From: Anaerolineales bacterium
Lineage (GTDB): Bacteria; Chloroflexota; Anaerolineae; Anaerolineales; UBA4823
Reading direction: 5' to 3'
NCBI GenBank assembly: GCA_036526235.1
Contig: DATCYX010000360.1
Location: forward strand, 1-32,455
Length of the DNA stretch: 32,455 nt
In this document: positions 9,265-32,455 of the stretch, one piece after another
Numbering within the stretch: the first letter of the stretch is position 1
Layout: every line of letters starts with the position of its first letter
The notes under the pieces: generated by a model
What the model was told of the DNA's origin: nothing
What the model saw: only the letters and a program-made list of their open reading frames with translations
The model's database searches: none
Translations under genes and position numbers: made by a program

Positions 9265-10638
9265 CTAGCCAAGCAGCGCCTTCACTACATCGCGGAACAC
9301 CCAGGTATGCAGATCGATGTCAGCCTCGGTCACATCCGGAGCGATGAGCGCCATGTTGTGAAAGGGTGTCAGCAAAATCCCGCGGTTGAGCGTCGCCAGG
9401 TGCATGTAGCGCGCCAGTTCATCATCCTGAGAGGCACGAGCCTCAGCGCCATTTCGGGGTGGTGTGCTGCGAAACCAATACTCTGCCCGGCAACCGAGAC
9501 GCGTGATATGCCAGGGGAGGTCAAATTCCTGGATGACGCCCTCTACGCCTTGCGTGTAGCGCAGTGCCAATGGGATGGTCCGCTCAAAGGCTTGCTGTGT
9601 GAGCACATGTTGTAAGGTTGCTCGCATGGCGGTGAGTGAGAGGGCATTGCCAGCGAGCGTCCCACCCACACCGTGGATGGTCTCGCCTTCGTTTTGTATG
9701 GCCCTGGAGATGCGATCAGCTACTTCGGCCGAGAAGCCGTATACCGCAGTGGGCACACCGCTACCGATAGGTTTCCCAAGGGTGAGCATATCTGGCTGAA
9801 GATCATAAGCCTGCGTGTACCCACCGGGACCAGCCGAGATGGTGTGCGTTTCATCGATGATCAATAATGTCTCTGTGCGGTGTGTGATCTCTCGTAAAGC
9901 CGCGTGATAACCTGGTTCGGGAAGCACAATTCCGATGTTGGTCAGGGCGGGCTCGGCCAGCACGCAGGCCACGTCGCCGGGCTGGAGGGCAGCTTCGAGG
10001 GCGGGGATATCATTGAACTCGATCACCCGCGTGGTCAGGGTGGGATCCACTGGCGGGCCTGCATTGGCTTCGCGCGATACGGGCTTCCCATCCACGATGG
10101 TGACGAACGACTCGTCCACCGTGCCGTGATAGCAACCATTGAACACCAATATGCGTTTGCGTCCGGTGATGTAACGCGCTAAGCGGATTGTGAAGCGATT
10201 GGCGTCTGTGGCGGTCAAGGCGATTTGCCAGTATGGCAAACCGAAGCGACGGTGCAGCTCTTCTCCCAACCAGACGGCATCCTCGGTAGGCAGCATGAAG
10301 GTGATTCCGCGGCCCAGGCGATCGGTGATGGCCTGGACAGCGGCATGCGGCGAATGGCCTGTCATGGCTCCTGTGTCGCCCAGGCACAGGTCGAGATAAC
10401 GATGGCCATCGACATCCCATAGATAAGCCCCGGATCCTTCCTCGACGAAAATGGGAAACGTTCCAGCCCACTCGACCATCCAATTCATGGGCACGCCATC
10501 CAGTAAATGCGCTTTTGCCTTCTCGAAAAGCTTCTTCGAGGCAGGATGTTCTGCCACGAAGCGCTGTTGTTCCTGGGCAATGAGGGCTCTTAATCTGTCC
10601 CTATTGATTGGTGTTTTTTGCCCATCCATGCCTTTCAA
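9265..10638 (-). CDS. Class-III PLP-dependent aminotransferase, glutamate-1-semialdehyde-aminomutase-like
   Basis: 457 aa. Motifs are GSGAYLWDVDGHRYLDL, TATDANRFTIRLARYITGRKRILVFNGCYHG, IIDETHT and the PLP-lysine context LTLGKPIGSGVP. The track start is a TTG. An in-frame ATG three codons downstream (about 10629) is an alternative. Confidence 0.85.
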   Translation of the reverse strand: MKGMDGQKTPINRDRLRALIAQEQQRFVAEHPASKKLFEKAKAHLLDGVPMNWMVEWAGTFPIFVEEGSGAYLWDVDGHRYLDLCLGDTGAMTGHSPHAAVQAITDRLGRGITFMLPTEDAVWLGEELHRRFGLPYWQIALTATDANRFTIRLARYITGRKRILVFNGCYHGTVDESFVTIVDGKPVSREANAGPPVDPTLTTRVIEFNDIPALEAALQPGDVACVLAEPALTNIGIVLPEPGYHAALREITHRTETLLIIDETHTISAGPGGYTQAYDLQPDMLTLGKPIGSGVPTAVYGFSAEVADRISRAIQNEGETIHGVGGTLAGNALSLTAMRATLQHVLTQQAFERTIPLALRYTQGVEGVIQEFDLPWHITRLGCRAEYWFRSTPPRNGAEARASQDDELARYMHLATLNRGILLTPFHNMALIAPDVTEADIDLHTWVFRDVVKALLG

Positions 10639-10664
10639 TCCCCAATTCGGTTTTGAGTTGCCAC

Positions 10665-12116
10665 CTAGATGATCTCTTTTTCTGCAGAGGCGAGGATTTT
10701 GTTCAGCTCGGCTTGCTTGTCAGCTTCAAGGGGAGGGGGTTGGTGGTTCTGCAAGATCCAGTCGAACTTTTCACGAGCGACTTCGAGTGGATGGCGATAT
10801 TTCCCGGTTTGATCGGTGACATGGGTAAGACCGAGTCTTACGGTAGTGCGGATATACTTGCGAGTGTGTTTTTGAGACAGATAATGCCCGCCGGGACCGA
10901 CCTTGTCGATCACATCCAGTGCAAGTGTTTCAGGTGATACCTCCTCCTCTGCCAGGGCGTAGCGAGCTCGATGATAGATCTCATCATCCAGGATGATTGC
11001 CTCTGGATGGAGCAGGGTGAAGGTGCGGTTTAGACCAATACCGGTTGCCCACTCACAAGATGCCAAACTGATCAACAATGGGTCCAGAGACACATCGGCG
11101 GCCGATTGCCAGGTCCCTGGTTCAACGCTCTCAGTTCCAAAAGCGCCCCCGAACGAAGGCATACCCCAATGATGAGCTATGTCTATGGGCCCGTAACGAA
11201 CGCGAGCATCGACTGGATAGGCGATGTAGTTGCCATTTCGCGGGTCAACCCAGCCTTGTAACAAGGAGTGGCTAACTGGTGTACCCGGATTGATCAGCTG
11301 CATGAGCACCGTCGCGCTGATGATCTCAGCATCTGCAACCACAAACGCACCGGCTTGTGTAACGGGTGCAGTCGTGCCCATGGTAGGCATAGCCATGAAA
11401 CTCACAGGAATGCCTTCCTCAGCCAGGAGCATGGCGCCCTCAATCCCTTCTTTATCTTGCACCAAAGGCGCAATGGTGCAAATTAACACGGATAACAACG
11501 GGTTTTCCCGAAGCGCCTCTCTACTCCCTGCGACAACTGTAGCCATCTCGATGGCATAGCGAGTGGCGACCTCTCCCAGCAGTGTCTCGGTTTTAATGTG
11601 CTTGACCGTATTGTTCCAGGATGCGTCCAAATCGTGCAAAGAGGATAATTTACCGAAATCTTGCGAGCCGACCATTGGCCAGTAAAACGCGGTGGAGGAT
11701 AAATAATCGACGATCTTCGCCGTTCTGCCCACATCTGCTTTCGTAGAGGAGCGGGTCAGACCTGTTTTGGGATCAACGGTCTCCACTCCGCATCCATCCA
11801 CACCCATATAGGTATATCCTTCCTGGAGAGAAAAACCCAGCGCAGGATCACGGGCTCCCAATCGGTAGTAACGTGGAACAGTGGACATGGCTTTGATGAC
11901 CAGGTCCCGGGGTAGCTTGACAACGCTTGTATCCCTGTCCACCAGAGCGCCGTGTTCCTCAAAAATGGACAGGGCTTTTTGTGTCGGAAATTGCACACCT
12001 GTTTTTTCAAGCACCTGGAGGGTTGCTTCTTGCAATTGGTCCAGATCCTCATCGGAGAAGAATTGGATCCTGTGCTTGGATACAATTGGCTCAATCGGTA
12101 AGCGATCAGGGGTCAT
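10665..12116 (-). CDS. MttB-superfamily (trimethylamine methyltransferase family) corrinoid methyltransferase, no pyrrolysine codon, subgroup A
   Basis: 483 aa, uninterrupted. N-terminal family pattern: LDQLQEATLQVLEKTGVQFPTQKALSIFEEHGALVD...VKLPRDLVIKAMSTVPRYYRLGARDP. C-terminal pattern: VGPGGHYLSQKHTRKY. It shares long identical blocks with the ORFs at 19098 and 26946 (FYWP.V..QD, NNTVKH..TET, LICTI.PL). Confidence 0.85.
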   Translation of the reverse strand: MTPDRLPIEPIVSKHRIQFFSDEDLDQLQEATLQVLEKTGVQFPTQKALSIFEEHGALVDRDTSVVKLPRDLVIKAMSTVPRYYRLGARDPALGFSLQEGYTYMGVDGCGVETVDPKTGLTRSSTKADVGRTAKIVDYLSSTAFYWPMVGSQDFGKLSSLHDLDASWNNTVKHIKTETLLGEVATRYAIEMATVVAGSREALRENPLLSVLICTIAPLVQDKEGIEGAMLLAEEGIPVSFMAMPTMGTTAPVTQAGAFVVADAEIISATVLMQLINPGTPVSHSLLQGWVDPRNGNYIAYPVDARVRYGPIDIAHHWGMPSFGGAFGTESVEPGTWQSAADVSLDPLLISLASCEWATGIGLNRTFTLLHPEAIILDDEIYHRARYALAEEEVSPETLALDVIDKVGPGGHYLSQKHTRKYIRTTVRLGLTHVTDQTGKYRHPLEVAREKFDWILQNHQPPPLEADKQAELNKILASAEKEII

Positions 12117-12161: not shown

Positions 12162-14642
12162 TCAGCACTTCACCCGTTCGTTCTTGGGATCGTACATCGG
12201 CCGCAGTGAGACTTTCGCGGGGTAGCGCACCTTGTTCACCTCAATTTCAAACTTCCCGCTACGGATATAATCGGCGGTCACACCTTCTTCATTCTCTATG
12301 AAAGCTAACCCTACGGCTCCACCAAGCGTGAATCCATAGGCGCCTGAACGGACATACCCGACCCATTTGCCATCCCGGTATATTTGTTCCCCGTAGTAAA
12401 GGAGAGGCTCGGGATCCTCGAGAAGGAATTGGGCAAACCGATTTTTTAGAATTCCAGATTCCTTTTGTCTGAGCAGCGCCTCGCGCCCAATAAAACCACT
12501 GGGTTTGTTGAAATCGACCACAAAGCTCAGGCCTGCTTCCAGTGGGGTGTCGGTCACATCGATATCATGACCATAATCCCGGTAGGCTTTTTCGATCCTG
12601 AGCGTGTTCAGCGCTTGAAGACCGGCGTGCTTTAATCCCAGGTCTTGTCCGGCCTCAACTAGCAGGTCAAAGATCGAGGGGGCAAATTCGGTGGGGATAT
12701 ACAATTCGTATCCAAGCTCGCCAAGATAAGTAATTCGATAAGCCATTGCGCGCGCATAATGGATATCTATTTCCTTCATGGTCATATAGGGGAAGGCTTC
12801 ATTGGATAGGTCTGTGTTTGTCACACGGCTCAGGAGTTGGCGTGATTTTGGTCCCTGGACATTAATCATGGCGTAGCCCGAAGTGACATCGGTGACGAAG
12901 GCATGCGCCTCTGGAGGGATATGCCGCTTAAGCCAGGTTTCTACATGGCGATGGGCCAGGTCCGAGCAGATCACAAGGAAGGCGTCTTCTGCCACCCGGG
13001 TCACGGTCAGATCGGCTTCAATTGTTCCGCGTTCATTTAGCCACTCCGTGTAAACGATCCTACCTACCGGGATGGAGACATCATTGGTTGAAATCCGGTT
13101 GAGGATTGCTTCTGCATCTCTCCCTTGAACGAGGAATTTGGACATCAGTGAGAGATCCATCAAGATCACATCTTGCCGGCAAGCTTTGTGTTCGGCGGCG
13201 TTGTACTCAAACCAATTCTGGCGTCCCCAAGAGTATTCAACCCGTGGCTCAACACCTGGGGGCGCAAACCAGTCCGGGTATTCCCACCCGGCGGAGGAGG
13301 CAAAATATGCGCCTGCTTTCGCCAAACGCTCATGCAGGATGGATTTGCGCGCATTCCTGGCAGTCACAAACTGAGAGTTGGGAAAACTCTCCTTGTACAT
13401 CATGCCTAGGATTTCCACGGTGCGATCGTGCAGGTATTGGGGGGTATTCTGGAAGGGCAACATCCTGTCAATGTGGATATCAGCGACATCTACCGGCGGC
13501 AAACCGTCTATGATCCATTGCGCCAGGACCTTACCTACGCCGCCTCCGAGCAAAATCCCCAAGGAGTTTAGACCAGCTGCCACGTAAAAATTTCTCAGTT
13601 CTGGCGCTTCACCTAGCAAGAGGGTTAAATCGGGGGTGAAACTTTCTGGACCGCAGAATAGTTTTCTGATCCCGGCAGTTTTTATCGCTGGAATGCGCTC
13701 CATGGCTTTATCAATGTAAGGCATCATTCGATCCCAGTCAGGTTGAATCTCGCCAAAAGTGAAATTTTGCGGGATTCCACCCATGCCCCAGGGCGCAGCC
13801 ACCGGCTCAAACAGCCCTAGCATCAAGCCGCCCACTTCCTCCCGGTAGTATGCATAACGGTCAACATCTTCTAATATGGGCAGATCTTCAGAGACCCCTT
13901 CCATCGGTTCGGTGATCAAGTAATAATGCTCGGCAGCATGCAGGGGTACATCTACCCCAGCCAGTTGACCGACTTTTCTGGCCCACATCCCGCAGCAGTT
14001 CACCACAAATTCGGCTTCAATTTCACCGCGGTTCGTCACGACACCAGTCACCCGCCCATTTTTTTTCTTTATCCCGGTGACCTCTGTTTCTTCGTAGATG
14101 CGCGCACCCTGATTCCTGGCCCCTTTGGCTAGAGATAAAGTTGCGTCTACCGGGTTTGCACGACCGTCTTCGGGCGTGTAGAACCCGGCAAGCACATCGC
14201 GTGCGTCTGCAAGAGGCCACAATTCCTTGAACTCCTTTGGGGAAATCTCCTCTACGTTGATGCCATAACCCCGAGCGAAATTTGCATTTCTTCGCAATGC
14301 TTCCAAGCGGGACGCCGAACTGGCAATTTCAATGTAACCCACAGGCTTAAATCCGGTTGATACCCCGGTTTCGTTTTCTAATTGTTTATATAGCTCGCGG
14401 GTGTAGTGCGCCATATAAAGCATTGTGTCTGTAGCAAACCCCCCACAGACGACCAAGCCAGCCGCGTGCCAGGTGGTGCCAGATGTTAACTGCTTGCGTT
14501 CAAGGACAATCACATCCTGCCAGCCCAGCTTCGTTAGGTGGTAAGCTGTACTGCAGCCAATCACTCCGCCCCCAATAATAACAACCCGCGCCTGTGTAGG
14601 GATGTGTGTATTAACCGAATTCGAATCCTGCGATTTAGTCAT
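12162..14642 (-). CDS. Dimethylglycine/sarcosine-dehydrogenase-like FAD oxidoreductase fused to a GcvT-type (folate-binding aminomethyltransferase) domain
   Basis: 826 aa. The N-terminal dinucleotide fold is VVIIGGGVIGCSTAYHL. TSGTTWHAAGLV matches the motif around the flavinylated His of DMGDH/SARDH. The C-terminal ~400 aa has the GcvT pattern (MDLSLMSKFLVQG, INVQGPKSR, ITYLGELGYELYIP). GAGGG lies ~7 nt upstream of the ATG. Confidence 0.9.
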   Translation of the reverse strand: MTKSQDSNSVNTHIPTQARVVIIGGGVIGCSTAYHLTKLGWQDVIVLERKQLTSGTTWHAAGLVVCGGFATDTMLYMAHYTRELYKQLENETGVSTGFKPVGYIEIASSASRLEALRRNANFARGYGINVEEISPKEFKELWPLADARDVLAGFYTPEDGRANPVDATLSLAKGARNQGARIYEETEVTGIKKKNGRVTGVVTNRGEIEAEFVVNCCGMWARKVGQLAGVDVPLHAAEHYYLITEPMEGVSEDLPILEDVDRYAYYREEVGGLMLGLFEPVAAPWGMGGIPQNFTFGEIQPDWDRMMPYIDKAMERIPAIKTAGIRKLFCGPESFTPDLTLLLGEAPELRNFYVAAGLNSLGILLGGGVGKVLAQWIIDGLPPVDVADIHIDRMLPFQNTPQYLHDRTVEILGMMYKESFPNSQFVTARNARKSILHERLAKAGAYFASSAGWEYPDWFAPPGVEPRVEYSWGRQNWFEYNAAEHKACRQDVILMDLSLMSKFLVQGRDAEAILNRISTNDVSIPVGRIVYTEWLNERGTIEADLTVTRVAEDAFLVICSDLAHRHVETWLKRHIPPEAHAFVTDVTSGYAMINVQGPKSRQLLSRVTNTDLSNEAFPYMTMKEIDIHYARAMAYRITYLGELGYELYIPTEFAPSIFDLLVEAGQDLGLKHAGLQALNTLRIEKAYRDYGHDIDVTDTPLEAGLSFVVDFNKPSGFIGREALLRQKESGILKNRFAQFLLEDPEPLLYYGEQIYRDGKWVGYVRSGAYGFTLGGAVGLAFIENEEGVTADYIRSGKFEIEVNKVRYPAKVSLRPMYDPKNERVKC

Positions 14643-14930: not shown

Positions 14931-16049
14931 TCAGCGCCCTGTCCACACTGGAGCCGTCCATGCTGTGACACCCTCACTGCCAGAAACATTAGATGCTGTG
15001 GTCACACGCAGATAAAAGTAGTGGGCGGACTCGGAGTTCAAAGTGATCTTCTGGTCAAAGGTCACGCTGCTGGCGGGCAGGCTGGCAACAACCTCACCTC
15101 CATCGGAGATGACCTCCACCAAAGTGATGGCGTCGCTTGGAACCCCGTCTGGATCTTGGATATGAATGCTGGCGGTATAGGAGGAGGCAGGTGAGGATAA
15201 AACTGATCCCATGACTGCCCCGTTCAGCGTGTAGTTGATACGCAAGTTCTTATCCAGGGTTGCATAGCCTCTGCTGGCACTCATTGCTGCGTACAGGTCG
15301 GCGTGGGTTAATTTTTGGGCCAGCAGCACAGTCCTCACCTCAGAGCCAGAAATCCAGTCTGGCGAGTGCGTATCGGAATTGGCTGCCGGCATCACATGCC
15401 AGCCCTTATCTAGTGCCATAATATAGCTTGCTTCGTATTCCAGAAGCGCATAAGGCATGATCCAGCTTCCATAGTTGTGGATCTCAAGCAGCCCCATGCC
15501 CTGATCGCGGGAATCGGACCAGTAAGCAAAGTCGTCGAAATTATCGCCATAATCGGTGGGGTGAACCCACAAGCCGACTGCACCCGAGCGGGCGGCGAGC
15601 TGATCATAGAAGGTTCCGGGAACCGCCCAACGCGGCAGTTTCACGCCAGGGCCATGCAGACCGGGTTTTGAGCGCGGCGTGTCGGCATAATTAAATACAT
15701 TGACTTCACCGAATCCGGGCATCCAAAACTCGTAGCCTGGAATGGCGACGAAACTATCTGAAGTGTACTCCGCTGCCGCCAGGAGCGTTTGCTCCCATTC
15801 GTCAGCAGTGAGCATATAGCTGTGGTCGGTGGTTGCCATGAAATCAGCACCGGCAACCTTGGCGGCTGCAAAGGCATCTGCTGGCGTGCCTTCCCACGCA
15901 TCGCTATAGCCTGTATGAGCATGCAGGTCCCCGAAGTACAAATCATATTGGACTGGTTTTTGTGCTTCCTTTGCTGAAGTGACCAAACCGAAACTGAATG
16001 ATCCAAGGATAATGATTGAAAGGAGCACTATTCGGATTTTTTTACTCAT
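14931..16049 (-). CDS. Secreted PHP-domain (CehA/McbA-like) metallohydrolase with a C-terminal beta-rich domain
   Basis: 372 aa. The N-terminal signal or anchor is KKIRIVLLSIIILGSFSFGLVTSA. PHP metal-ligand motifs are FGDLHAHTGYSDA, ATTDHS, GYEF, WVHP and NSDTHSPD. The C-terminal ~90 aa are Ser/Thr/Val-rich and look like a beta-sandwich. Confidence 0.7.
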   Translation of the reverse strand: MSKKIRIVLLSIIILGSFSFGLVTSAKEAQKPVQYDLYFGDLHAHTGYSDAWEGTPADAFAAAKVAGADFMATTDHSYMLTADEWEQTLLAAAEYTSDSFVAIPGYEFWMPGFGEVNVFNYADTPRSKPGLHGPGVKLPRWAVPGTFYDQLAARSGAVGLWVHPTDYGDNFDDFAYWSDSRDQGMGLLEIHNYGSWIMPYALLEYEASYIMALDKGWHVMPAANSDTHSPDWISGSEVRTVLLAQKLTHADLYAAMSASRGYATLDKNLRINYTLNGAVMGSVLSSPASSYTASIHIQDPDGVPSDAITLVEVISDGGEVVASLPASSVTFDQKITLNSESAHYFYLRVTTASNVSGSEGVTAWTAPVWTGR

Positions 16050-16279: not shown

Positions 16280-16981
16280 CTAAGGCAGCATTGAGGCCTG
16301 ATAATGATCTTGATATTTACAAGTTTCCTGCATAGCGCAGTAGCTACAGGTGGTGCCACTGATCATCAACTGGGGACCAAAGCCCAACACCATGGTGAGC
16401 GATTTGCGGGGGAGCATAAGGTAAGACGAGGTGAGCCTTACGTCAATTGAGCTGGGATCCAGGATGTGAAATATTTCTGGCTGACCTTCGTCAACGGGCC
16501 AGCTTGTCATGCCGGGACTTAGTGGAATCGACGCCTGCCACTTGCTTTCTTGGGCGCGGGCCTCAAAAAATTTGCAGGTTGCATTGGCTAGCGCTTCTAC
16601 CGCTGCTGAACCGACTCCGTCTAGTGCCAACCCCAAGACCGGATCGCTATCGTACAGGCTAGCGATTTCCTTTTCCATTTTTTCGCCAATGCTACACAGG
16701 ATCACAACAATAATTTTGGCATATGCCAAGTGTTGGGTGAGCAGCTGGCTCTTTAGTGTATATCCCTCTGAAAGTATCAATGTTTCGTGGCGGACTTTTT
16801 CCAGCTCCAACTCTCGATAAAGCACAAGGGGTTCAAGCAATGGAAGACCGATGTCAAGAGCCCTTTCTGCTGTCAAGACAAGATTGGGTTTGCGCTTCCT
16901 GATTAACGCCGGATTTGCCCCTTGGGCCTGGAGGATTTGATCAGCAGTGATTGAGAATTCAATATCTTGCAGGATAGGCAA
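16280..16981 (-). CDS. Stand-alone MetH activation-domain-like protein (Met_synt_B12 family) with a C-terminal CX2CX5C tail
   Basis: 233 aa. The TTG start has GAGGAG ~10 nt upstream. IPLSPGMTSWPVDEGQPEIFHILDPSSIDVRLTSSYLMLPRKSLTMVLGFG matches by eye the PG(Y/M).(S/G)WP...Q..(L/I)F.(L/I)L......(V/I).LT.S..M.P.KS core of the cobalamin-dependent methionine-synthase reactivation module. Cysteines C212, C215 and C221 map to nt 16319-16348. Confidence 0.65.
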   Translation of the reverse strand: MPILQDIEFSITADQILQAQGANPALIRKRKPNLVLTAERALDIGLPLLEPLVLYRELELEKVRHETLILSEGYTLKSQLLTQHLAYAKIIVVILCSIGEKMEKEIASLYDSDPVLGLALDGVGSAAVEALANATCKFFEARAQESKWQASIPLSPGMTSWPVDEGQPEIFHILDPSSIDVRLTSSYLMLPRKSLTMVLGFGPQLMISGTTCSYCAMQETCKYQDHYQASMLP

Positions 16982-17012
16982 GTTCTACAGTCTCCTCAAA
17001 GAGTGTGTATAA

Positions 17013-17041
17013 ATTATAGCGAACAAAATGATGCAAGTCAA
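17013..17041 (-). promoter_or_regulatory. Near-consensus sigma-70-type promoter driving the minus-strand arm (TTGACT-17-TATAAT)
   Basis: The minus strand reads TTGACT (complement of 17036-17041), a 17-nt spacer, then TATAAT (complement of 17013-17018). It lies ~30 nt upstream of the TTG start at 16981. Confidence 0.45.
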
Positions 17042-17052
17042 TCTAAAAACGG

Positions 17053-17092: not shown

Positions 17093-17102
17093 ATAAAATT
17101 TA

Positions 17103-17130: not shown

Positions 17131-17136
17131 ATAAGT

Positions 17137-17640: not shown

Positions 17641-17647
17641 TTAAGAG

Positions 17648-24252: not shown

Positions 24253-24348
24253 TTTCTTTTTTAGGAAGCTGCTGGACGGTTTAAAAATGGATGACCTCCC
24301 ACAACTCGCCTAGAACAAGGCAAATCAAAAAGAAACAATATTTATCCT

Positions 24349-25293: not shown

Positions 25294-25467
25294 GAAAGGA
25301 AGCAGAAAGGAAGGCGGATGGACAATATCGCCATCCAGTTGAGGTAGTGCGTGAGCGGATTGTTTGGTAAGTGGATGCTATAAGATCGGGTCACAAGAAG
25401 GTGGTAAACGTAAGGAGATAGCTCGTAGCCTGGCTTGTGCCAATAAGAGCTGATCGGGGAAGGGTAA

Positions 25468-26871
25468 TTGGAGAGATTTCAAATGTTGTCTTTGCAGTCG
25501 GCGTTATGTGAGAAAGACATTCATCGGATCCACGAACACAGCCTGGATGTGTTGATGGAGGTGGGGATTGCATACAATACGCCCCGTGCACTGAATATCT
25601 TGGAGGAAAGGGGCTGTCAGGTGGATTACAGCCGCAATTGGGCGTGCATTCCTCCTGACCTGGTCGAATGGGCGATTTCCCAAGCACCTCGCAAAGTGAC
25701 ACTCGCGGCGCGTGACCCATCCAGGGATGTGCTGCTGGACGGTTTGAAATCTCACCACACTACCGATAGTCAAGGCACTCAAGCGATTGACCTGCAAACC
25801 GGAATACTTCATGATTCCAATGCAGAAGATCTGCGCAACGCAGCGCTTTTTGCCGACGCTCTGAACATGATCGAGATTGTAAATGTCTCTGTTTCAGCCA
25901 GCGATATTCCGGCCCACTTGCGTACGCTTTTTCATTTTTCTCAAGTATTTACACAAACCAGCAAACACGTGCGCACTGGCGTGTTGAACGCCGAACAAGT
26001 GCCTTTCCTGGTGGAAATGGCGAAGATTGTAACCGGCAGCGATGCCTTCCGCCCGATATTCTCAGTGATTGATTGCACCATCTCGCCCTTGATGCACGAT
26101 GGACTGATGACCGAGGCATGCATCGATTTAGCCAAACTGCAAGTTCCCATTTTGGTTTACCCTATGCCGCTGGCAGGGGGTACTTCCCCAGTGACCTTGG
26201 GGGGTACGATGCTGATGCACAACGTGGAGTTCCTCAGCGGGTTGGTGCTGTACCAATGTGTAAACCCTGGCACACCGGTGATCTATGGTACAGGCTCGTC
26301 GCAATTGGATATGCACACAGGCAGGTATGGTGGCAGTGCGGATGGGTTCGGAATGGGACTTTCGCTGATAAATCTTGCCACGTTCTATGATCTGCCAGTA
26401 AATCTGTGGGGGCTTTCTACTAAGTCAAAAGAACTTGGTACTCAATATGGCTACGAGGCAACCGCAGGCACCATGCTGTCATATTTAGCAGGTGCAGATG
26501 AAATCTACAGTATGGGACTTTTAGGGTCGGCTCAGATCTTATCGTTGGAAAAGATGGTTTTGGATAATCATTTAGCTCGCCAGATTGAGATTATGCTGGC
26601 ACCTATCAAGGTAGATGAAGAACATCTGCAGGTCGATTTGATAAAGCGTGTTGGAATCGGCGGTGGCTTCTTAAACCAGCGGGAAACCCTCAGATATACC
26701 CGAGAGGAGTATGTCCCTCTTTGGCCACCACATGGCAAGGATTTGAAAGAGATGATCCATCGCGAAGCATTGGATATCCTGCACAACCATCGATCTCCGG
26801 CACTACCGCATGGCGCGCGCGAGAAGATCGAAGATATTTTGAGACATGCTGACAAAGAGTTGGGCGGGTGA
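25468..26871 (+). CDS. MttB-superfamily corrinoid methyltransferase, no pyrrolysine codon, subgroup B (true start probably ATG 25483)
   Basis: 467 aa from the track TTG. The ATG five codons in (25483) has GGAGAG 7 nt upstream, and the TTG lies inside that SD. Family pattern: IHEHSLDVLMEVGIAYNTPRALNILEERGCQVD...ACIPPDLVEWAISQAPRK, LDMHTG, STKSKELGTQYGYEAT, GGGFLNQRETLRYT. Confidence 0.85.
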   Translation: MERFQMLSLQSALCEKDIHRIHEHSLDVLMEVGIAYNTPRALNILEERGCQVDYSRNWACIPPDLVEWAISQAPRKVTLAARDPSRDVLLDGLKSHHTTDSQGTQAIDLQTGILHDSNAEDLRNAALFADALNMIEIVNVSVSASDIPAHLRTLFHFSQVFTQTSKHVRTGVLNAEQVPFLVEMAKIVTGSDAFRPIFSVIDCTISPLMHDGLMTEACIDLAKLQVPILVYPMPLAGGTSPVTLGGTMLMHNVEFLSGLVLYQCVNPGTPVIYGTGSSQLDMHTGRYGGSADGFGMGLSLINLATFYDLPVNLWGLSTKSKELGTQYGYEATAGTMLSYLAGADEIYSMGLLGSAQILSLEKMVLDNHLARQIEIMLAPIKVDEEHLQVDLIKRVGIGGGFLNQRETLRYTREEYVPLWPPHGKDLKEMIHREALDILHNHRSPALPHGAREKIEDILRHADKELGG

Positions 26872-26945: not shown

Positions 26946-28409
26946 ATGTCCGTTTTTAGTGAAACTCCGCCTCTTGACCCTATCGTAGCGAAGCATCACT
27001 TGCGTGTCTTAGACGATGGGCAGCTCAGCGATCTAAAGAAGGCTACATTGACGATTTTAGATCAGGTGGGCTTTCACTGTCCATCTGAGAAAGCGTTAGT
27101 GATCTACGCGGACCACGGGGGTCAGGTGGATTTTGAGAGACAGCTCGTGCGCTTATCGCCGGATGTGGTTGAGAAAGCCATGTCCCATGCGCCTCGCTTC
27201 TACAAGATGGCTTCTCGTTCTGCAGCGCATGATATTGACCTTGATGGCACTGCCACCTACTGTGCCACCGATGGGTGTGGGGTTGAGACGATCGATTTTG
27301 TGACGCGCGAACGAAGGAACTCGAAAAAGGACGATGTGGCCAATATGGCCAGGGTGGCGGATTACCTGTCTTCAATCGGGTTCTACTGGCCGATTGTCTC
27401 TGCGCAGGATTACCCTGAGATAGCACCTTTGCATGAGCTACATGCTTCATTCGAAAACACCGTTAAGCACGTACAAACTGAAACTGTGATGGATGAGTCT
27501 ATGGCGCGCTATGCGGTCGAAATGGCAACTGTGGTGGTAGGTGACAAGGAAATCTTGCGTAAACGACCGGTCCTCTCGTCTTTGATATGCACGATCTCCC
27601 CCTTGGCTCAAGATAAGGGGGGCTTGGAATCAGCGCTGGTGTTTGCAGAAGCCGGCCTGCCGGTGGGTTTTATGTCTATGGCGAATGTGGGCTCAACCGG
27701 TCCAGCCACAATTGCTGGGACGATTGTTGAGGCTGATGCGGAGATCATTGCCGCCTTGGTGTTGATACAGATGGCTTTTCCTGGTGCGCCTGTCTATCAC
27801 TCGATGATGCCTGGGGTTATGCATCCACGTACTGGGGCATATATGGCTACTACCTGGGAGGGGAGCGCGATTTACGCGTATGGTACTGAGATCGCCCATC
27901 ACTGGGGAGTGCCAACCCTGGCCGGTGTTTTTGGCACGGATGGTCAGGTGCCTGGCTGGCAATCTGCAGCTGAAGCAGCTTCATCCTTAATGATGTGCGC
28001 GTTATGCAAGGCGGATACCGGGGCTGGATTGGGTTTGCTGGAAGCATGCACCCTGCTTTATCCAGAAGCGATTGTCTTAGACTCGGATATTTATCACCGG
28101 GTGAGGATTGAGGCAGGTGGCTTAGATACCAGTGTGGAGATGCTGGCATTAGAGGTCATCAAGCAGGTTGGCCCCCGCGGGCATTATCTCAGCCATAAAC
28201 ACACTCGTGCCCATATGCGCAGACGAAGATTTTCAGACCTGGTTGCCCAACCAACCCCGGATGGTGGTATGCGAGAACCTGTTGAGGTCGCTCGTGAGAG
28301 GGTGGAGTATATACTCAACAATCACTTCCCCCTGCCTTTGGAGCCAGCCCAACAATTTGAGCTAAAACATATCCTGCAGGTTGCGCAGAAGGAATTTACC
28401 CAAGTATGA
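26946..28409 (+). CDS. MttB-superfamily corrinoid methyltransferase, no pyrrolysine codon, subgroup A
   Basis: 487 aa. GAGGA lies upstream. Motifs are FYWPIVSAQDYPEIAPLHELHASFENTVKHVQTET, LICTISPLAQD and VGPRGHYLSHKHTR. Confidence 0.85.
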   Translation: MSVFSETPPLDPIVAKHHLRVLDDGQLSDLKKATLTILDQVGFHCPSEKALVIYADHGGQVDFERQLVRLSPDVVEKAMSHAPRFYKMASRSAAHDIDLDGTATYCATDGCGVETIDFVTRERRNSKKDDVANMARVADYLSSIGFYWPIVSAQDYPEIAPLHELHASFENTVKHVQTETVMDESMARYAVEMATVVVGDKEILRKRPVLSSLICTISPLAQDKGGLESALVFAEAGLPVGFMSMANVGSTGPATIAGTIVEADAEIIAALVLIQMAFPGAPVYHSMMPGVMHPRTGAYMATTWEGSAIYAYGTEIAHHWGVPTLAGVFGTDGQVPGWQSAAEAASSLMMCALCKADTGAGLGLLEACTLLYPEAIVLDSDIYHRVRIEAGGLDTSVEMLALEVIKQVGPRGHYLSHKHTRAHMRRRRFSDLVAQPTPDGGMREPVEVARERVEYILNNHFPLPLEPAQQFELKHILQVAQKEFTQV

Positions 28410-29839
28410 AGACCACGATAGAAGTTCTAGATAGTTTTGAGAAAAACCGGGTGCATGAGAGCACCTTGGACATACTCGCAAACACGGGCGTGATGGTGAA
28501 CTCTGCCTTGGGACGAAAATATTTAGCAGAGGCTGGTGCAGAAGTTGATAAAAACACCAAAATAGTACGGTTCCCACGGCAATTGGTCGAGGAGTGTATA
28601 AAGTTGGCTCCGAAACATTTTAAGCTGGGAGCCCGAAGACCAGGTTGGGATCTTGAGATGAATGGGGATGATTGTATGCTGGTGGCTGATGGTGAGGCTA
28701 CCTACGCAGTCGATTGGCCATCTACGGAGCGTCGTATAGCTACCATGGAGGACTGGTTGATCGCAACCCGCTTGTTAGATAGTATTGATGATATTGGTGT
28801 GTATTGGGCAATGGTGGAGAGTGGCTTGAAAGATGGCAGCCAATTTAAATTGGTGAAATACTGGAGGCATCTACTAAGTAATTTTTCAAAACACCTCCAA
28901 GATGTCATCAATAGCAAGGAACAAGCTCCTTGGATCTTGGAAATACTGCAGATTGTCTTCGGAGATAAGCAGGTAATCCGTGAGCAACATCCACTTTCAT
29001 TATTGCTATGCCCGCAATCGCCCTTAATGATTGATAAGCAATATACCGATGCGTATCTGTCGATGACAGGCTGGGATATTCCAGTTGCTATCATGCCAAT
29101 GCCCTTGATGGGTGGAACGGGACCCGCGAATATGATCTCAATGGTCATCCAGGGGAATTGCGAAGTTCTTTCCATGCTTTGCCTGGTCCAGGCAGCGACA
29201 CCGCGTACGCCGGTTATCTATGCACCGGTACTCGCCGCGATGGATCCCCATACGGGTTTATATAGTGGAGGGGCGATTGAGAATGGCATTTTGGGCGTGG
29301 CTGCAATTGAGATGGGTCGTTATTATGGTCTGCCGGTCGAAGGGGTAGGGGGAGGGACGTCCCAGTTCATACCTGGGATTCAGGCGGGCTATGAACGAGT
29401 CTTGACCGGATTTATGCCCACCTTGAAGTTGCCAGACTTGATCGTAGGTCCGGGATTGGTCGGCAATTCCATGGTGTTGAGCCTGGAGCAGCTGGTCATA
29501 GATGTTGAGATTTTCCGGATGAGTATGCACGCTTATCGGGGTATTGACACCCGTGAAGGAAATTGGCTCAATGATGTCATTCAGCAGGTGGGGCCTGGTG
29601 GGCACTATTTGAGCGAACGTTCAACCGTCCAAGCATTTCGGAATGGTGAGATGTACCTGCCAAATCTTGGCTATCGTGGTCCATACCTGGCGTGGAAAGA
29701 GGCCGGTGGAACTACACTGTTACAAGAAGCGCATGAAAAAGTTGAATACTTGCTTGCCAATTATGATCCATTACCCCTGTCGGAGGAGGTGGAGCGCGAA
29801 TTAGAGCTGCTACAAAAGAGGGTAGAGTTCACCATTTAA
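28406..29839 (+). CDS. MttB-superfamily corrinoid methyltransferase, no pyrrolysine codon, subgroup B (most divergent copy)
   Basis: 477 aa. Its ATG overlaps the upstream stop (ATGA). Family pattern: VHESTLDILANTGVMVNSALGRKYLAEAGAEVDKNTKIVRFPRQLVEECIKLAPKHFKLGARRP, MDPHTG, VGPGGHYLSERST. Confidence 0.8.
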   Translation: MKTTIEVLDSFEKNRVHESTLDILANTGVMVNSALGRKYLAEAGAEVDKNTKIVRFPRQLVEECIKLAPKHFKLGARRPGWDLEMNGDDCMLVADGEATYAVDWPSTERRIATMEDWLIATRLLDSIDDIGVYWAMVESGLKDGSQFKLVKYWRHLLSNFSKHLQDVINSKEQAPWILEILQIVFGDKQVIREQHPLSLLLCPQSPLMIDKQYTDAYLSMTGWDIPVAIMPMPLMGGTGPANMISMVIQGNCEVLSMLCLVQAATPRTPVIYAPVLAAMDPHTGLYSGGAIENGILGVAAIEMGRYYGLPVEGVGGGTSQFIPGIQAGYERVLTGFMPTLKLPDLIVGPGLVGNSMVLSLEQLVIDVEIFRMSMHAYRGIDTREGNWLNDVIQQVGPGGHYLSERSTVQAFRNGEMYLPNLGYRGPYLAWKEAGGTTLLQEAHEKVEYLLANYDPLPLSEEVERELELLQKRVEFTI

Positions 29840-29937: not shown

Positions 29938-31263
29938 GTGGAGGATATCACCATGGGTCTACAGGGAAAAAATACAAAGGCTTCGTATGAGAAAGCAAAG
30001 AAACTTATTCCGCACGGCGTAAACTCGAATTTCCGGTTCTGGGGAGACGACGATACACTAATTGTCTCGCACGGGGAGGGTGCATATGTTTGGGATTTAG
30101 ATGGCAAAAGGTACATTGATTACCGATTGGGCTTTGGACCCATAATTTTGGGGCATGGGTACCCGGCTGTAGTCGAGCGGGTGGGAGAGGCCATCAAAGG
30201 AGGCGTGACATTTGCCTGGACAACCTCCCTGGAAATACAAGTGTGCGAGCGCCTCACGAGGATGTGCCATGTGGACAAGGTTCGCCTGACAAATACGGGT
30301 TCCGAGGCTACTATGCACGCTTTGAGAATTGCTCGAGCGTACACAGGACGGGAAAAATTCATAAAATTTGAGGGCCACTATCATGGTCAATGTGACTATT
30401 TTATGTTTAGCACAGCTTCTTCCTCTCCAGCAGCCCTGGGTTCGCGCCGGGCGCCCATCCGCGCGCCGGTTACCTCAGGTATCCCAACGGGGATTAACCA
30501 GTATGTGATCGTTCTGCCGTTCAATGATCTGGAAAGGTTGGAGGAGACCATTGAGGCCCAGTGGGGTGACCTGGCGGCTGTCTTTGTCGAGCCATTGATG
30601 GGCAATTGTGCTGGTATTGTTGGGAAGCCCGAGTTCATCAAGAAGCTCCGCGAGCTTTGTGACAAATTCGGTATCATGCTTGTTTTTGACGAGGTAAAAA
30701 CTGGTTTCAGGATTGCAAAGGGGGGCGCCCAAGAGTTTTATGACGTCCGGGCGGACCTGGTCACATATGCCAAGGCCATGGGAAATGGCTTCCCAATTGC
30801 GGCAATAGCTGGCAAGGAAAATGTCATGATGGTGATCGAACCTGGGGCGATGGCACATGGCGGCACTTATTCTGGCAACGTAGTTGGCACCGCAGCAGCA
30901 GATGCCACACTCGAGATCTTGGAGAATGAACCTGTGTTCGAAACCATCCAGCAACGTGGCAAAGCATTGATGAAAGGCATTGACGATATCCTTGCTGAAG
31001 CAGGGCTTCCCCATGTCGTCACTGGGGTGCCCTCTATGTTCGGGATATCTCTAGGGAGCGCAAAGGCGCCGCAAGAGTACAGAGACTACCATAAAGGGGA
31101 TACTGAGCTTTATGAGAAAATTAGCCTGGAGTTGAACCGGCGCGGGGTACAACCCGATTCTGATGGGCGAGAGCCCTGGTTCCTGTGTTACGCGCTGTCC
31201 AATGAAGATGTTGGTGAGACCTTGAATATATTCAACGACTCAGTAAAAGCTGCCATGCGGTGA
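29938..31263 (+). CDS. Class-III PLP-dependent aminotransferase, glutamate-1-semialdehyde-aminomutase-like (second copy; true start probably the ATG five codons in, ~29953)
   Basis: 441 aa from the track GTG. The in-frame ATG (MGLQGKN...) has GGAGGA ~7 nt upstream. Motifs are GEGAYVWDLDGKRYIDY, NTGSEATMHALRIARAYTGREKFIKFEGHYHG, VFDEVKTGFR and the PLP-lysine context TYAKAMGNGFPI. Confidence 0.85.
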   Translation: MEDITMGLQGKNTKASYEKAKKLIPHGVNSNFRFWGDDDTLIVSHGEGAYVWDLDGKRYIDYRLGFGPIILGHGYPAVVERVGEAIKGGVTFAWTTSLEIQVCERLTRMCHVDKVRLTNTGSEATMHALRIARAYTGREKFIKFEGHYHGQCDYFMFSTASSSPAALGSRRAPIRAPVTSGIPTGINQYVIVLPFNDLERLEETIEAQWGDLAAVFVEPLMGNCAGIVGKPEFIKKLRELCDKFGIMLVFDEVKTGFRIAKGGAQEFYDVRADLVTYAKAMGNGFPIAAIAGKENVMMVIEPGAMAHGGTYSGNVVGTAAADATLEILENEPVFETIQQRGKALMKGIDDILAEAGLPHVVTGVPSMFGISLGSAKAPQEYRDYHKGDTELYEKISLELNRRGVQPDSDGREPWFLCYALSNEDVGETLNIFNDSVKAAMR

Positions 31264-31341
31264 TTTCTCCGGGAATTCCCCGGATGGCAGGGTGATTAGA
31301 ACGACGAGTATTGAGCAATATTTTGAATAAAGGAGCATCCC

Positions 31342-32455
31342 ATGCGTATCATTGTTCTGGGTGGTGCCGGAAAAATGGGTTGTATCGCCGTCCAGCATCT
31401 GGCGATTGACCCGCGCGTTGATGAAGTCGTCATTGCGGACATCAGCCAAGAGAATGCCCGGTTGGTGGCAGACACTATCAATAGTCCGAAAATAGATATC
31501 CAGATCGTGGATATCAATGACCAAGAAAAGTTTGGTAAATTGCTAAAAGGCGCGGATGCCTGCCTCAATTCGACCGTTTACTACACCAATCTCAAAGTGA
31601 TGGAAGCCTGTCTTGCAGCTGGGACGCACTACACTGACCTGGGAGGGCTGTTTTTTACCACCAGAAAGCAGCTTGAGCTTCATGACCAATTCAAAGCCGC
31701 CGGGATAAGCGCTGTGTTGGGGTTGGGATCGGCGCCGGGTGTGCCGAATATTCAAGCGCGCTATGCCGCTGACCGTTTAGACACCATTGAAAGTGTCAAG
31801 ATCTTTGATGGTATCAAGCCGCCCCCTCCTGATGACATGCGGTTTCCCTATGCTGTGCCGACCATTATTGAGGAGCTTACGGTCAAACCGATGGTCTTTG
31901 AGGATGGAGAATTCAGGGCAAAAGATCCATTGAGCGGGTTTGAAGATTACTGGTTTGTGCAACCGCTTGGCTTGTTGCCAATGCATCTGTCTCTCCATTC
32001 GGAAGTGGCAACTTTGCCCATATCATTTCGCGATAAGGGCATCAAAGAGTGCTTCTTTAAGATTAATTATTGGGGAATGTCAAAGGAGACAGTCGAGAAA
32101 TTGCGGGTGCTGGCCGATTTTGGATATGCCGCAACCGAAGCCGTAGATGTGAAAGGCACTAGCGTGGTGCCTCTGGATTTGATGATTGCGATCATGTCGG
32201 GGTATGTGCCAGATATCACTGAGTTTTTGGCTCCGCCAAAGACCCAGCCGCCAAACTGGGCGAAGGAGATCGTCACGGAGATCAAAGGCACCAAAGATGG
32301 CAGGGAGATGACCTATCGCCTAGGGACACTCACTTGCAAAGGTGCGCTACCAACTGGGGTTGCCCCCGCCATTGCAGCGATCTGGTTAGCCGAAGGGCGC
32401 ATTGAACCCGGTGTATATCCGCCGGAAATTGCCCTTGACCCCGAAGCTTTCTTAA
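31342..32455 (+). CDS. Saccharopine-dehydrogenase-family NAD(P)-dependent oxidoreductase, 5' part (runs off the right edge; not in the ORF track)
   Basis: The ATG at 31342 has AAGGAG 6-7 nt upstream. I translated 371 codons by hand to the window end without meeting a stop. MRIIVLGGAGKMGCIAVQHL is a GxGxxG Rossmann start. GTHYTDLGG, LGLGSAPGVPN and HSEVATLP fit the Sacchrp_dh_NADP/Sacchrp_dh_C pattern as I remember it. Confidence 0.7.
   Translation, partial: MRIIVLGGAGKMGCIAVQHLAIDPRVDEVVIADISQENARLVADTINSPKIDIQIVDINDQEKFGKLLKGADACLNSTVYYTNLKVMEACLAAGTHYTDLGGLFFTTRKQLELHDQFKAAGISAVLGLGSAPGVPNIQARYAADRLDTIESVKIFDGIKPPPPDDMRFPYAVPTIIEELTVKPMVFEDGEFRAKDPLSGFEDYWFVQPLGLLPMHLSLHSEVATLPISFRDKGIKECFFKINYWGMSKETVEKLRVLADFGYAATEAVDVKGTSVVPLDLMIAIMSGYVPDITEFLAPPKTQPPNWAKEIVTEIKGTKDGREMTYRLGTLTCKGALPTGVAPAIAAIWLAEGRIEPGVYPPEIALDPEAFL

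Follow-up and report, generated by a model that had tools for sequence, protein, structure and literature searches.

A conserved Anaerolineales gene island with six distinct, uncharacterised MttB relatives and one predicted vitamin-B12 carrier protein

The window, a 32,455-nucleotide stretch of an Anaerolineales bacterium (contig DATCYX010000360.1), holds a gene island with two divergent arms, one on the minus strand (9265-16981) and one on the plus strand that begins at 17137 and is cut by the window end at 32455. Its features are as follows.

9265..10638, minus: AT1, class-III (omega) aminotransferase (PF00202, E=1.1e-36), final gene of the minus arm
10665..12116, minus: M1, MttB superfamily, orthogroup A1, clade A (PF06253, E=4e-48)
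12162..14642, minus: dimethylglycine/sarcosine-dehydrogenase-like (DMGDH-like) flavoenzyme (Pfam DAO, FAO_M, GCV_T and GCV_T_C)
14931..16049, minus: PHP-type metallohydrolase, CehA/McbA family (NCBIfam NF038032, 104 bits, cut-off 80)
16280..16981, minus: stand-alone MetH reactivation-domain-like protein, 233 aa (profile, AF2, Foldseek)
16982..17136, no strand: putative divergent intergenic control region between the arms (sigma-70-like matches)
17137..17640, plus: AsnC/Lrp-family regulator (Pfam), first gene of the plus operon
17648..19075, plus: M2, MttB superfamily, orthogroup B2 (PF06253, E=4.5e-74)
19098..20549, plus: M3, MttB superfamily, orthogroup A3, clade A (PF06253, E=1.1e-59)
20597..21247, plus: corrinoid (cobalamin-binding) methyl carrier (PF02310 and PF02607, DVHEIG motif)
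21301..25293, plus: Opp/Dpp-type ABC importer (Pfam; position conserved in the ancestral operon), with the family-5 solute-binding protein at 21301-23118 and permeases at 23212-24252 and 24349-25293
~25305..25470, plus: deletion scar, remnant of an A1-type MttB gene (alignment to L007, tblastn)
25468..26871, plus: M4, MttB superfamily, orthogroup B4 (PF06253, E=3.5e-73); start placed by gene callers at 25483 (462 aa)
26946..28409, plus: M5, MttB superfamily, orthogroup A5, clade A (PF06253, E=1.6e-61)
28406..29839, plus: M6, MttB superfamily, orthogroup B6 (PF06253, E=6.7e-67), overlapping M5 by 4 nt
29938..31263, plus: AT2, class-III aminotransferase (PF00202, E=3.6e-69); called start 29953, 436 aa
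31340..32455, plus: saccharopine-dehydrogenase-like oxidoreductase (reading frame), truncated at the window end; full length 389 aa

As originally predicted, the six MttB-family reading frames are full length (467-487 aa) with no internal stops, and all match PF06253 (MTTB) along their whole length, with E-values between 4e-48 and 4.5e-74. The two paralogs run against the PDB, M2 and M3, match solved MttB and MtgB structures with E-values from 1e-48 to 1e-66; for both, the best match is the trimethylamine enzyme Pyl-MttB (PDB 7XCL), and both match the glycine betaine enzyme MtgB of the Desulfitobacterium hafniense MtgB/MtgC/MtgA system (PDB 2QNE, 9YCE) over the full length (E from 1e-48 to 1e-64). 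M2 is the paralog closest to MtgB and MttB (PDB 7XCM, E=3.8e-66; 9YCE, E=1.7e-64). Unlike Pyl-MttB, the island paralogs have no in-frame TAG and carry Gly or Ser (Ser in M2) at the pyrrolysine position, and they score 315-405 against TIGR02369, where the cut-off is 525. Each paralog belongs to a separate orthogroup kept across many Anaerolineae species, with more than 100 orthologs of M3 at ~70% identity in the Anaerolineales, and dN/dS values of 0.05-0.13 (0.054 for M1), measured against a relative 81-86% identical, indicate strong purifying selection on all six.

The original prediction arranged these enzymes in two alternating subgroups, of which one is a natural group. M1, M3 and M5 form clade A, sharing 47-49% pairwise identity as against 25-30% to the others, with 100% NJ bootstrap support. 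The proposed subgroup B dissolves: M2, M4 and M6 are 24-30% identical to one another, no nearer than to clade A, their monophyly is recovered in 0 of 200 bootstraps, and the NJ tree has a ladder-like form, ((A,(B6,B7)),B4),B2, with the three as separate deep lineages. The motifs quoted for both subgroups are found as described; those of subgroup B (LDMRTG-like and QAG[FY]E) are ancestral to the family, since MtgB and Pyl-MttB also carry them. The alternation itself, taken earlier as an argument against random paralog accumulation, is statistically unremarkable in the window, as 2 of the 10 ways to place two A and three B genes in a pair and a triplet alternate fully (our count). The B-A-B block arose by the recent deletion of ~1.3 kb containing a fourth A-type gene. 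Positions 25150-25302 align to 15919-16071 of the closest related locus (L007) and 25305-25599 to its 17381-17677 (71%), the latter part being in L007 the 3' end of an extra MttB gene; ~1.3 kb is absent between these flanks, and the scar retains a tblastn match (41% over 49 aa, E=4e-8).

Four substrate-pocket positions have been defined in MtgB, the glycine-betaine-binding Y97, R312, H348 and F356 (PMC13080624), and this set is replaced in all six paralogs. In that order the residues are G/F/T/F in M1, G/M/Y/G in M2, G/L/I/S in M3, S/N/Y/A in M4 (invariant in 19 orthologs) and G/L/A/C in M5, while M6 has Glu in place of the carboxylate-binding Arg (invariant in 13/13 orthologs). The Tyr at the H348 position is common to M2, M4 and MttB. 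The set differs from one orthogroup to the next and is largely conserved within each, being fully invariant in B2 and B4.

The corrinoid protein comprises B12-binding and B12-binding_2 domains with a DVHEIG motif of the DxHxxG type at residues 102-107, and scores ~210 bits against the NCBIfam pyl_corrinoid/MtbC/MtgC-like models, under their equivalog cut-offs (310 for MtgC). No second corrinoid protein is found among the other window ORFs. The possibility that one carrier is an artefact of the window ends can be set aside at local scale, as none is added within ~9 kb on either side: the left flank (window 1-9264) holds unrelated genes, and the right flank, viewed in 8.8 kb of a contig with identical genes (L085), encodes a saccharopine-dehydrogenase-like protein, two ABC-type ATPases, a DAO oxidoreductase and small hypothetical proteins. 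Among related loci that bear a corrinoid gene, exactly one is present in 32/32, beside 1-7 MttB genes.

A point added by the present analysis is the product of 16280-16981, a candidate corrinoid reactivation factor. Its match to PF02965 lies under the cut-off (E=0.001); its family profile matches TM0269 of Thermotoga maritima, a stand-alone MetH activation domain (PDB 1J6R), with E=1.1e-13, and the AF2 model (pLDDT 85) finds MetH reactivation domains in all of the best 19 PDB matches by Foldseek, with TM-scores to TM0269 of 0.63/0.74. It differs from TM0269 in sequence (24% identity), in an additional invariant C-terminal CxxCx5C tail and in its genomic partners, with MttB/MtmB-type corrinoid systems taking the place of MetH. 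Homologs lie directly 3' of a pterin-binding corrinoid methyltransferase in four related loci (L024, L033, L170 and L171), although the window protein is just 50-59% identical to these linked copies. Neither a methylcorrinoid:tetrahydrofolate methyltransferase nor a RamA-type activase is found within ~9 kb of the island, which, unlike the MtgBCA system, is without an MtgA gene. Listed homologs of the pterin methyltransferase show 76-84% conservation, and those with source names are from Chloroflexota.

Several of the remaining genes point to further processing of amines. AT1 scores 676 bits (cut-off 425) against NCBIfam PRK07046 'transaminase' and adjoins the A1-type MttB gene in L007 also, and AT2 scores 558 bits (cut-off 525) against the GntE-type transaminase model. 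The DMGDH-like gene, the commonest non-MttB neighbour in related loci, is a candidate for the oxidative, folate-linked N-demethylation of tertiary and secondary amine products. The full-length saccharopine-dehydrogenase-like gene in L085 encodes PF03435 and PF16653, and the two importer ATPases missing from the window are present on that contig; the CehA/McbA-family gene is retained in L007 only. The two best sigma-70-like matches of a 20-kb scan fall in the intergenic control region, one per strand (17041-17013 minus, 11/12; 17103-17130 plus, 10/12), with an overall scan count not above chance.

The gene order goes back to a widespread Anaerolineae operon, AsnC-B2-A3-CORR-SBP-perm-perm-A1-B4-(A5/Ax)-(B6), found in at least 20 species and in metagenome contigs, with the AsnC/Lrp gene 5' of B2 in nearly every related locus. 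Recurrent neighbours include DMGDH-like, class-III transaminase, aldehyde dehydrogenase or AOR, ornithine-cyclodeaminase-like, agmatine-deiminase-like and saccharopine-dehydrogenase-like genes.

This inheritance bears on the earlier suggestion of heteromeric or sequential A/B pairs. On that reading A-type and B-type enzymes would be obligate partners, either heterodimers in which the C-terminal arm of one completes the pocket of the other, as in MtgB/MttB homodimers, or consecutive enzymes acting on one compound. Pocket edges are indeed shared within MtgB dimers (PMC13080624), A-B is the commonest adjacency of MttB genes in related loci (50/71), B2 lies nearly always directly upstream in the corrinoid-linked A3 lineage, and M5 and M6 overlap. 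The A-B adjacencies are mostly three or four inherited junctions, however, and the overlap is retained in L007 only. Pairing is further disfavoured by 15 A-A and 6 B-B adjacencies among the 71, by solo A3-type genes in ~20 species, where neither a B-type nor a corrinoid gene lies within 10 kb, and by what follows B2: of 66 loci anchored on B2 instead of A, 29 have A3 next, 26 the corrinoid gene and 11 A1. With 'B' itself being three unrelated lineages, intergenic gaps that differ between species (-11 to >200 nt), an A gene lost in the window while its B neighbour was kept, and the DMGDH-like and DAO enzymes already accounting for later demethylation steps, we consider obligate pairing improbable. 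Pure independent specificity does not predict that nearly every corrinoid-containing cluster has at least one A-type and at least one B-type gene, an observation that favours pairing but that shared ancestry can explain.

That the paralogs are largely redundant, acting on the same or overlapping substrates and kept for differences in dosage, affinity or regulation, is doubtful. All belong to one or two operons that share an AsnC-type regulator, and MttB families can be very large although few of their substrates are known, as with the 82 MttB genes of 'Ca. Formimonas warabiya' (PMC9768040); against this, the island paralogs are just 24-49% identical, every copy is under purifying selection, and the orthogroups persist across many species with their own pocket residues (for example, Met, Asn, Glu or Leu/Phe where MtgB has R312). 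It is most unlikely that one MttB lineage is a methylcorrinoid:acceptor methyltransferase, moving methyl between two small molecules with no folate-dependent second methyltransferase. The B2-A3-corrinoid core triad does resemble an MT1-MT2-carrier layout, and a pterin-binding/URO-D-type second methyltransferase is absent from the island and from most of 74 related loci; yet clade A retains 13/16 columns conserved in all other MttB lineages, including MtgB and Pyl-MttB, and the highly conserved pterin methyltransferase occurs at other corrinoid loci in related genomes and beside an A-type MttB in three related loci. No MttB member is known to be a methylcorrinoid:acceptor methyltransferase.

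The best-supported reading is the hub of the original prediction, a multi-substrate quaternary-amine demethylation system with one carrier in common, as indicated by purifying selection, orthogroup-specific pockets, one corrinoid gene per locus and the MtqC precedent in Eubacterium limosum (PMC12155760). The island is probably a two-armed catabolic regulon for methylated, likely quaternary, amines. Substrates would enter by the Opp/Dpp-type importer, and the six MttB enzymes, with their different pockets, would act as substrate-specific methyltransferase-I proteins that each pass one methyl to the Co(I) form of the corrinoid protein. The carrier would be unloaded by a pterin-binding methylcorrinoid:tetrahydrofolate methyltransferase whose gene would lie at another genomic site and, when oxidised to Co(II), restored by the 16280-16981 product. 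Tertiary and secondary amine products would undergo further oxidative demethylation by the DMGDH-like and DAO flavoenzymes, and the primary amines so formed would be removed by AT1, AT2 and the saccharopine-dehydrogenase-like enzyme, with both arms controlled by the AsnC/Lrp regulator from the divergent promoter.

The design of one carrier serving many MttB enzymes already has precedent. In the E. limosum quaternary-amine system (MtpB, MtcB, MtyB; MtqC; MtqA; RamQ), several substrate-specific non-pyrrolysine paralogs of the same family (PF06253) likewise accompany one corrinoid protein, the methyltransferase-I enzymes MtpB, MtcB and MtyB each methylate MtqC, one MtqA serves them (PMC12155760), and the second methyltransferase likewise need not adjoin each MttB gene. 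Similarly, in the split methionine synthase/MtgBCD system of Ruegeria pomeroyi, one cobalamin-binding protein works with more than one methyltransferase, MttB-family donors are used, components are scattered over the genome and MtgC is common to different functions (PMC12478193); this aerobe relies on RamA and DUF1638 for reactivation, where the island candidate is a TM0269-like MetH activation domain. Unlike the E. limosum system, the island places six paralogs beside genes for an Opp-type importer, oxidative demethylation and transamination, and has the reactivation-domain protein instead of a nearby RamA/RamQ-type activase. The Arg equivalent to MtgB R312, which in characterised enzymes anchors the anionic group and is reportedly conserved in MtcB, MtpB, MthB and MtyB (PMC13080624), is retained by none of the six, so that their chemistry may differ from that of every characterised member.

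The methyl-transfer island is organized as two divergent arms, the minus arm running from 16981 down to 9265 and the plus arm from 17137 onward. The minus arm encodes, in order, a 233-aa protein, a PHP-type metallohydrolase, a dimethylglycine/sarcosine-dehydrogenase-like flavoenzyme (DMGDH-like, with DAO and GCV_T domains), the MttB-family paralog M1 and a class-III aminotransferase. Its plus-strand counterpart opens with an AsnC/Lrp regulator, M2 and M3, followed by a corrinoid protein and by the binding protein and two permeases of an Opp/Dpp-type importer, and continues with M4, M5, M6, a second class-III aminotransferase (AT2) and a saccharopine-dehydrogenase-like gene that is cut at the window end. 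A contig with identical genes (L085) continues for 8.8 kb to the right, where the remainder of the saccharopine-dehydrogenase-like gene is followed by two ABC ATPases with a DAO oxidoreductase between them and then by small unrelated ORFs. The island is also carried by the MAGs GCA_041573275.1, GCA_041559715.1 and GCA_041554615.1. The seven methyl-transfer genes are located as follows, the MttB genes being assigned from the ORF listing and the Pfam scan.

Positions of the MttB paralogs and the corrinoid protein
10665-12116, minus strand: M1, MttB family
17648-19075, plus strand: M2, MttB family
19098-20549, plus strand: M3, MttB family
20597-21247, plus strand: corrinoid protein, PF02310 (B12-binding) and PF02607 (B12-binding_2), motif DVHEIG
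25468-26871, plus strand: M4, MttB family
26946-28409, plus strand: M5, MttB family
28406-29839, plus strand: M6, MttB family

The left part of the window (1-9264) encodes a two-component system as well as a STAND-type ATPase of 1152 aa (AAA_16, TPR and a weak TCAD9 'ternary complex associated domain'), followed after 5 nt by a 274-aa ORF whose sole match is a very weak one to SMODS-associated NUDIX (E=0.012). The G+C content is 0.55-0.58 at 4795-9083 (plus strand), where the ATPase lies, versus 0.46-0.51 for most other window sequence. PADLOC found no specific system in the STAND ATPase region, and the pair may represent a conflict or signalling module. A promoter and terminator scan was overall not above chance (19 versus 21.9; 21 versus 19.5); its one suggestive feature is where the two best promoter-like sites lie.

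All six paralogs are intact members of the MttB family, as originally predicted. None contains an internal stop, and each matches PF06253 nearly end to end (164-250 bits against a cut-off of 25, from profile positions ~25-34 to 489-498 of 500). M2 and M3, the two compared with the PDB, also match 7XCL and 2QNE over ~460 residues, so that a TIM-barrel fold like that of the solved MttB and MtgB structures is predicted. NCBIfam has a single subfamily model for the MttB superfamily, TIGR02369 (the pyrrolysine trimethylamine methyltransferase equivalog), against which the paralogs score 315-405, under its cut-off of 525, and they are thus not nameable from NCBIfam. The pyrrolysine column is occupied by Gly or Ser and no in-frame UAG is present, in agreement with the earlier designation of these proteins as non-pyrrolysine members. 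Compared with orthologs in the closest relative (L007), dN/dS is 0.05-0.13 in all six, values that are approximate with dS near saturation; the corrinoid protein and the DMGDH-like gene give 0.044 and 0.047.

The division of the six proteins into two sequence subgroups, as first proposed, holds for one subgroup and fails for the other. M1, M3 and M5 (clade A) share 47-49% identity, whereas M2, M4 and M6 are only 24-30% identical to one another, about as distant as they are from clade A (25-30%). A neighbour-joining tree (Kimura distances, 200 bootstraps) was built from 188 MttB ORFs of 74 related genome loci together with three PDB-derived references: MtgB (9YCE), Pyl-MttB (7XCM) and the S. 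meliloti protein 4YYC. The best match among the GTDB representatives returned has 75% identity, and the source species is not among them. Clade A is monophyletic in 200/200 replicates and comprises the orthogroups A1 (with M1), A3 (with M3), A5 (with M5) and a further one, Ax. The orthogroups B2, B4 and B6, headed by M2, M4 and M6, respectively, each have 100% support, but a joint B clade is recovered in 0/200 replicates. The favoured branching order is ladder-like: A joins B6 and a further orthogroup, B7, as (A,(B6,B7)) at 0.75, followed by B4 at 0.91 and B2 outermost. The motifs taken to define B (LDMRTG-like and QAG[FY]E) also occur in MtgB, and in variant forms in Pyl-MttB; they are ancestral characters lost by clade A, and the A/B split amounts to one true clade and a paraphyletic remainder. 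Loss of the catalytic framework in clade A was considered and rejected: the framework is likely retained, since of the 16 columns conserved across every non-A group and in MtgB, MttB and 4YYC, 13 are also kept by clade A (the B lineages have the full set by construction).

The substrate pockets differ from those of the characterised enzymes and from one another. In MtgB, the quaternary amine makes cation-pi contacts with Y97 and F356, and the carboxylate is bound by R312 and H348 (JBC 2026, PMC13080624); R312, which binds the anionic group, is stated to be conserved in MtcB, MtpB, MthB and MtyB (PMC13080624). The corresponding positions were read from the alignment only, in which the R312 column is anchored by a conserved G-x-P motif just upstream; an AF2 model of M3 built from an 11-sequence alignment was poor (pLDDT 56.6) and was set aside.

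Residues aligned with MtgB Y97 / R312 / H348 / F356 in each orthogroup
A1: G / L or F / T / Y or F; a single residue at Y97 and at H348
A3: G / L / variable / S or A; a single residue at Y97 and at R312
A5: G / L / S or A / C or S; a single residue at Y97, L at R312 in 19/20
B2: G / M / Y / G; 22-23/23
B4: S / N / Y / A; 19/19
B6: G / E / V / S; E at R312 in 13/13

All four MtgB pocket residues are replaced in all six paralogs, leaving no match to the MtgB pocket; the R312 column reads F, M, L, N, L and E in M1 to M6, and the alignment places no Arg or Lys at or beside it in any of them. On the basis of these residues, the pyrrolysine column and the TIGR02369 scores, none of the six is MtgB, Pyl-MttB or, by the R312 criterion, a carboxylate- or phosphate-anchoring member. 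Pockets that are conserved within an orthogroup and specific to it are what distinct substrate specificities predict, and the invariant Glu of B6 could accommodate a substrate that bears another cationic group.

The order of the genes was originally read as a non-random alternation of A and B, possibly reflecting pairs that act as heteromeric or sequential enzymes. When two A and three B genes are distributed over a block of two and a block of three, 10 arrangements are possible, 2 of which alternate fully, and the pattern in the window is statistically unremarkable. It is also inherited, as the order AsnC-B2-A3-corrinoid-SBP-permease-permease-A1-B4-(A5 or Ax)-(B6)-(B7) is shared by at least 20 species of Anaerolineae. 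In L007 (81-86% protein identity) a further A1-type gene separates the second permease from B4; at this place the window carries a deletion scar (25294-25482), the 174-nt gap between the second permease and M4. About 1.3 kb of the A1-type gene (L007 counterpart at 16085-17545) is missing and its 3′ end remains alignable at ~25305-25470; M4, if begun at the TTG at 25468, probably reaches too far into the scar, and gene callers use 25483. Because the window has lost a gene that L007 keeps, the ancestral order of the two blocks is B-A and then A-B-A-B.

That A and B proteins are obligate, specific partners draws support from the presence of at least one gene of each kind in nearly all corrinoid-containing clusters, but several observations taken together argue against it, beginning with the failure of B to form a clade. 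Among adjacent MttB pairs over 73 loci, A-B occurs 50 times alongside 15 A-A and 6 B-B adjacencies, and four junctions that recur (B2-A3 17, A1-B4 16, A5-B6 6 and B4-Ax 6) make up most of the A-B class. Intergenic distances at the A-B junctions vary from overlaps to more than 200 nt. Genes of the A3 type occur in two further conserved contexts, DMGDH<AsnC<DinB>A3>MOSC and AsnC<DMGDH>A3>sox-like, in ~20 species without a B gene, and usually without a corrinoid gene, within 10 kb, and these copies form their own subclades. As the genome-locus scan used a clade-A probe, which biases the frequency of B given A, a B2-anchored scan of metagenome contigs was run as a correction; in the 66 loci that extend far enough downstream, B2 is followed by A3 in 29 cases, by the corrinoid gene in 26 and by A1 in 11. 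Obligate A/B pairing is therefore disfavoured.

The DinB/MOSC module, with its distinct A3 subclade, lies at about position 10001 in L024-L026, L032-L037, L040, L045, L048, L050 and L057, most of which have no corrinoid gene within 10 kb, and it is often adjoined by an aldehyde:ferredoxin oxidoreductase. An A3-type locus with typical Anaerolineae synteny (L046, DASRZI010000412.1) is binned as 'Candidatus Zixiibacteriota', through either a binning error or lateral transfer.

The reading that is best supported by the comparative analysis is a multi-substrate hub, in which several substrate-specific MttB donors would load one shared corrinoid carrier. The DxHxxG corrinoid protein with its B12-binding domain is the only one in the island, as first noted, and related loci that bear a corrinoid gene have exactly one in 32/32 cases, with 1-7 MttB genes alongside. 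This arrangement has experimental precedent in E. limosum, where MtpB, MtcB and MtyB each methylate MtqC, which is unloaded by MtqA (PMC12155760); many donors on one carrier is thus a design principle already known. Ruegeria pomeroyi uses one MtgC for glycine betaine demethylation as well as for methionine synthesis (PMC12478193), and the 82 MttB genes of 'Ca. Formimonas warabiya' provide a precedent for large expansions (PMC9768040).

Within ~9 kb on either side of the island there is no second corrinoid protein, no pterin-binding or URO-D-type unloading methyltransferase (MT2) and no RamA, and no PF00809 or PF01208 protein is found in the window or the 8.8 kb to its right. MT2-type genes are present in only five related loci, pterin-binding ones (281-310 aa) in L024, L033 and L036 and URO-D-type ones in L041 and L049. 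The pterin-type methyl-THF:corrinoid methyltransferase is highly conserved (76-84% identity among the homologs listed, those with a named source being Chloroflexota) and lies in clusters where non-pyrrolysine MtmB homologs have corrinoid proteins of their own (L170-L173). As this enzyme occurs at other corrinoid loci, it is plausible that the carrier is unloaded by a candidate methyltransferase encoded in trans.

The MtmB-homolog clusters of related Chloroflexota (L170, 9357-20699; L171, 3501-10687; L172, 1-10855) often pair each MtmB homolog with its own corrinoid protein, unlike the MttB island. They also hold the pterin methyltransferase, a MetH-reactivation-like protein and a ferredoxin, and are interleaved with amidohydrolases (L170, L172) and molybdenum hydroxylases (L172).

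The 233-aa 'hypothetical' protein at the head of the minus arm (16280-16981, minus strand) has no Pfam match at default settings and scores 19 bits against a cut-off of 25 for the MetH activation domain (PF02965, E=0.001), a domain with which some of its homologs carry precomputed annotations. A profile of 20 homologs matches T. maritima TM0269 (PDB 1J6R) with E=1.1e-13, and the top 19 Foldseek PDB matches of its AF2 model (pLDDT 85) are all MetH reactivation domains. As judged from the profile and this model, the protein is a stand-alone, TM0269-like homolog of the MetH reactivation domain. A CxxCx5C tail at the C-terminus is invariant in the family, although confidence in this part of the model is low. 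Homologs lie directly 3′ of the pterin methyltransferase in L024, L033, L170 and L171, with a ferredoxin next in one case, and at least 13 contigs agree in length between the homologs listed for the 233-aa protein and those listed for the pterin methyltransferase. Neither the window nor the set of recurrent neighbours inspected includes a RamA-type ATP-dependent activase, and the 233-aa protein is a candidate corrinoid reactivation factor in the place usually taken by RamA, for which it may be an alternative in corrinoid methyltransferase systems.

The gene context also offers hints to the substrates. The importer belongs to the Opp/Dpp family; betaine importers are usually of the OpuA or BCCT types. 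Recurrent neighbours in the window and its relatives include DMGDH-like and DAO oxidative N-demethylases, class-III (omega) transaminases, aldehyde dehydrogenase or aldehyde:ferredoxin oxidoreductase, ornithine-cyclodeaminase-like and saccharopine-dehydrogenase-like genes, agmatine-deiminase-like genes and nitrilase-like C-N hydrolases. Such a set could convert a trimethylammonium compound to a tertiary and secondary amine, then to a primary amine, an aldehyde and an acid, with omega-trimethylammonio acids, methylated basic amino acids or polyamine-type compounds as possible substrates. Agmatine-deiminase-like (PAD_porph) genes lie among or beside the MttB genes in L036, L043, L063, L076 and L083, and nitrilase/N-carbamoylputrescine-amidase-like genes in L020, L022, L073, L076 and L079; these insertions hint at guanidino or polyamine-type substrates. 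AT2 (29953-31263, plus strand, 436 aa) exceeds the cut-off of the NCBIfam equivalog for the guanitoxin-pathway transaminase GntE (558 versus 525 bits), a label that is doubtful as no other guanitoxin gene is present; the model probably over-reaches onto GSA-aminomutase-like transaminases.

Non-pyrrolysine MttB enzymes decide the fate of quaternary amines in anoxic environments, between demethylation and conversion to trimethylamine and methane precursors, and to our knowledge substrates have been assigned for only a handful of this very large family. Three features of the island merit attention: its pockets without an anionic anchor, its unusual transporter and catabolic context and its candidate MetH-type reactivation protein. 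An ambitious interpretation, to which we give perhaps one chance in a few, is that it serves new MttB substrate classes. These would be methylated amines, quaternary or other, that lack an anionic anchor, such as trimethyl-lysine/ornithine-type or polyamine-derived compounds, and an Opp-type importer would take them up. The carrier would be maintained in its active state by a MetH-type reactivation protein that depends on SAM and has a Cys-rich tail, rather than by a RamA-type ATP-dependent activase. A stronger version would make the A-type and B-type proteins non-equivalent in role around the single carrier. For the family, the island defines at least six orthogroups that are widespread in sediment and mud Anaerolineae and are without the R312-type Arg reported for characterised members, and its importer and downstream enzymes provide concrete hints toward substrate screening.
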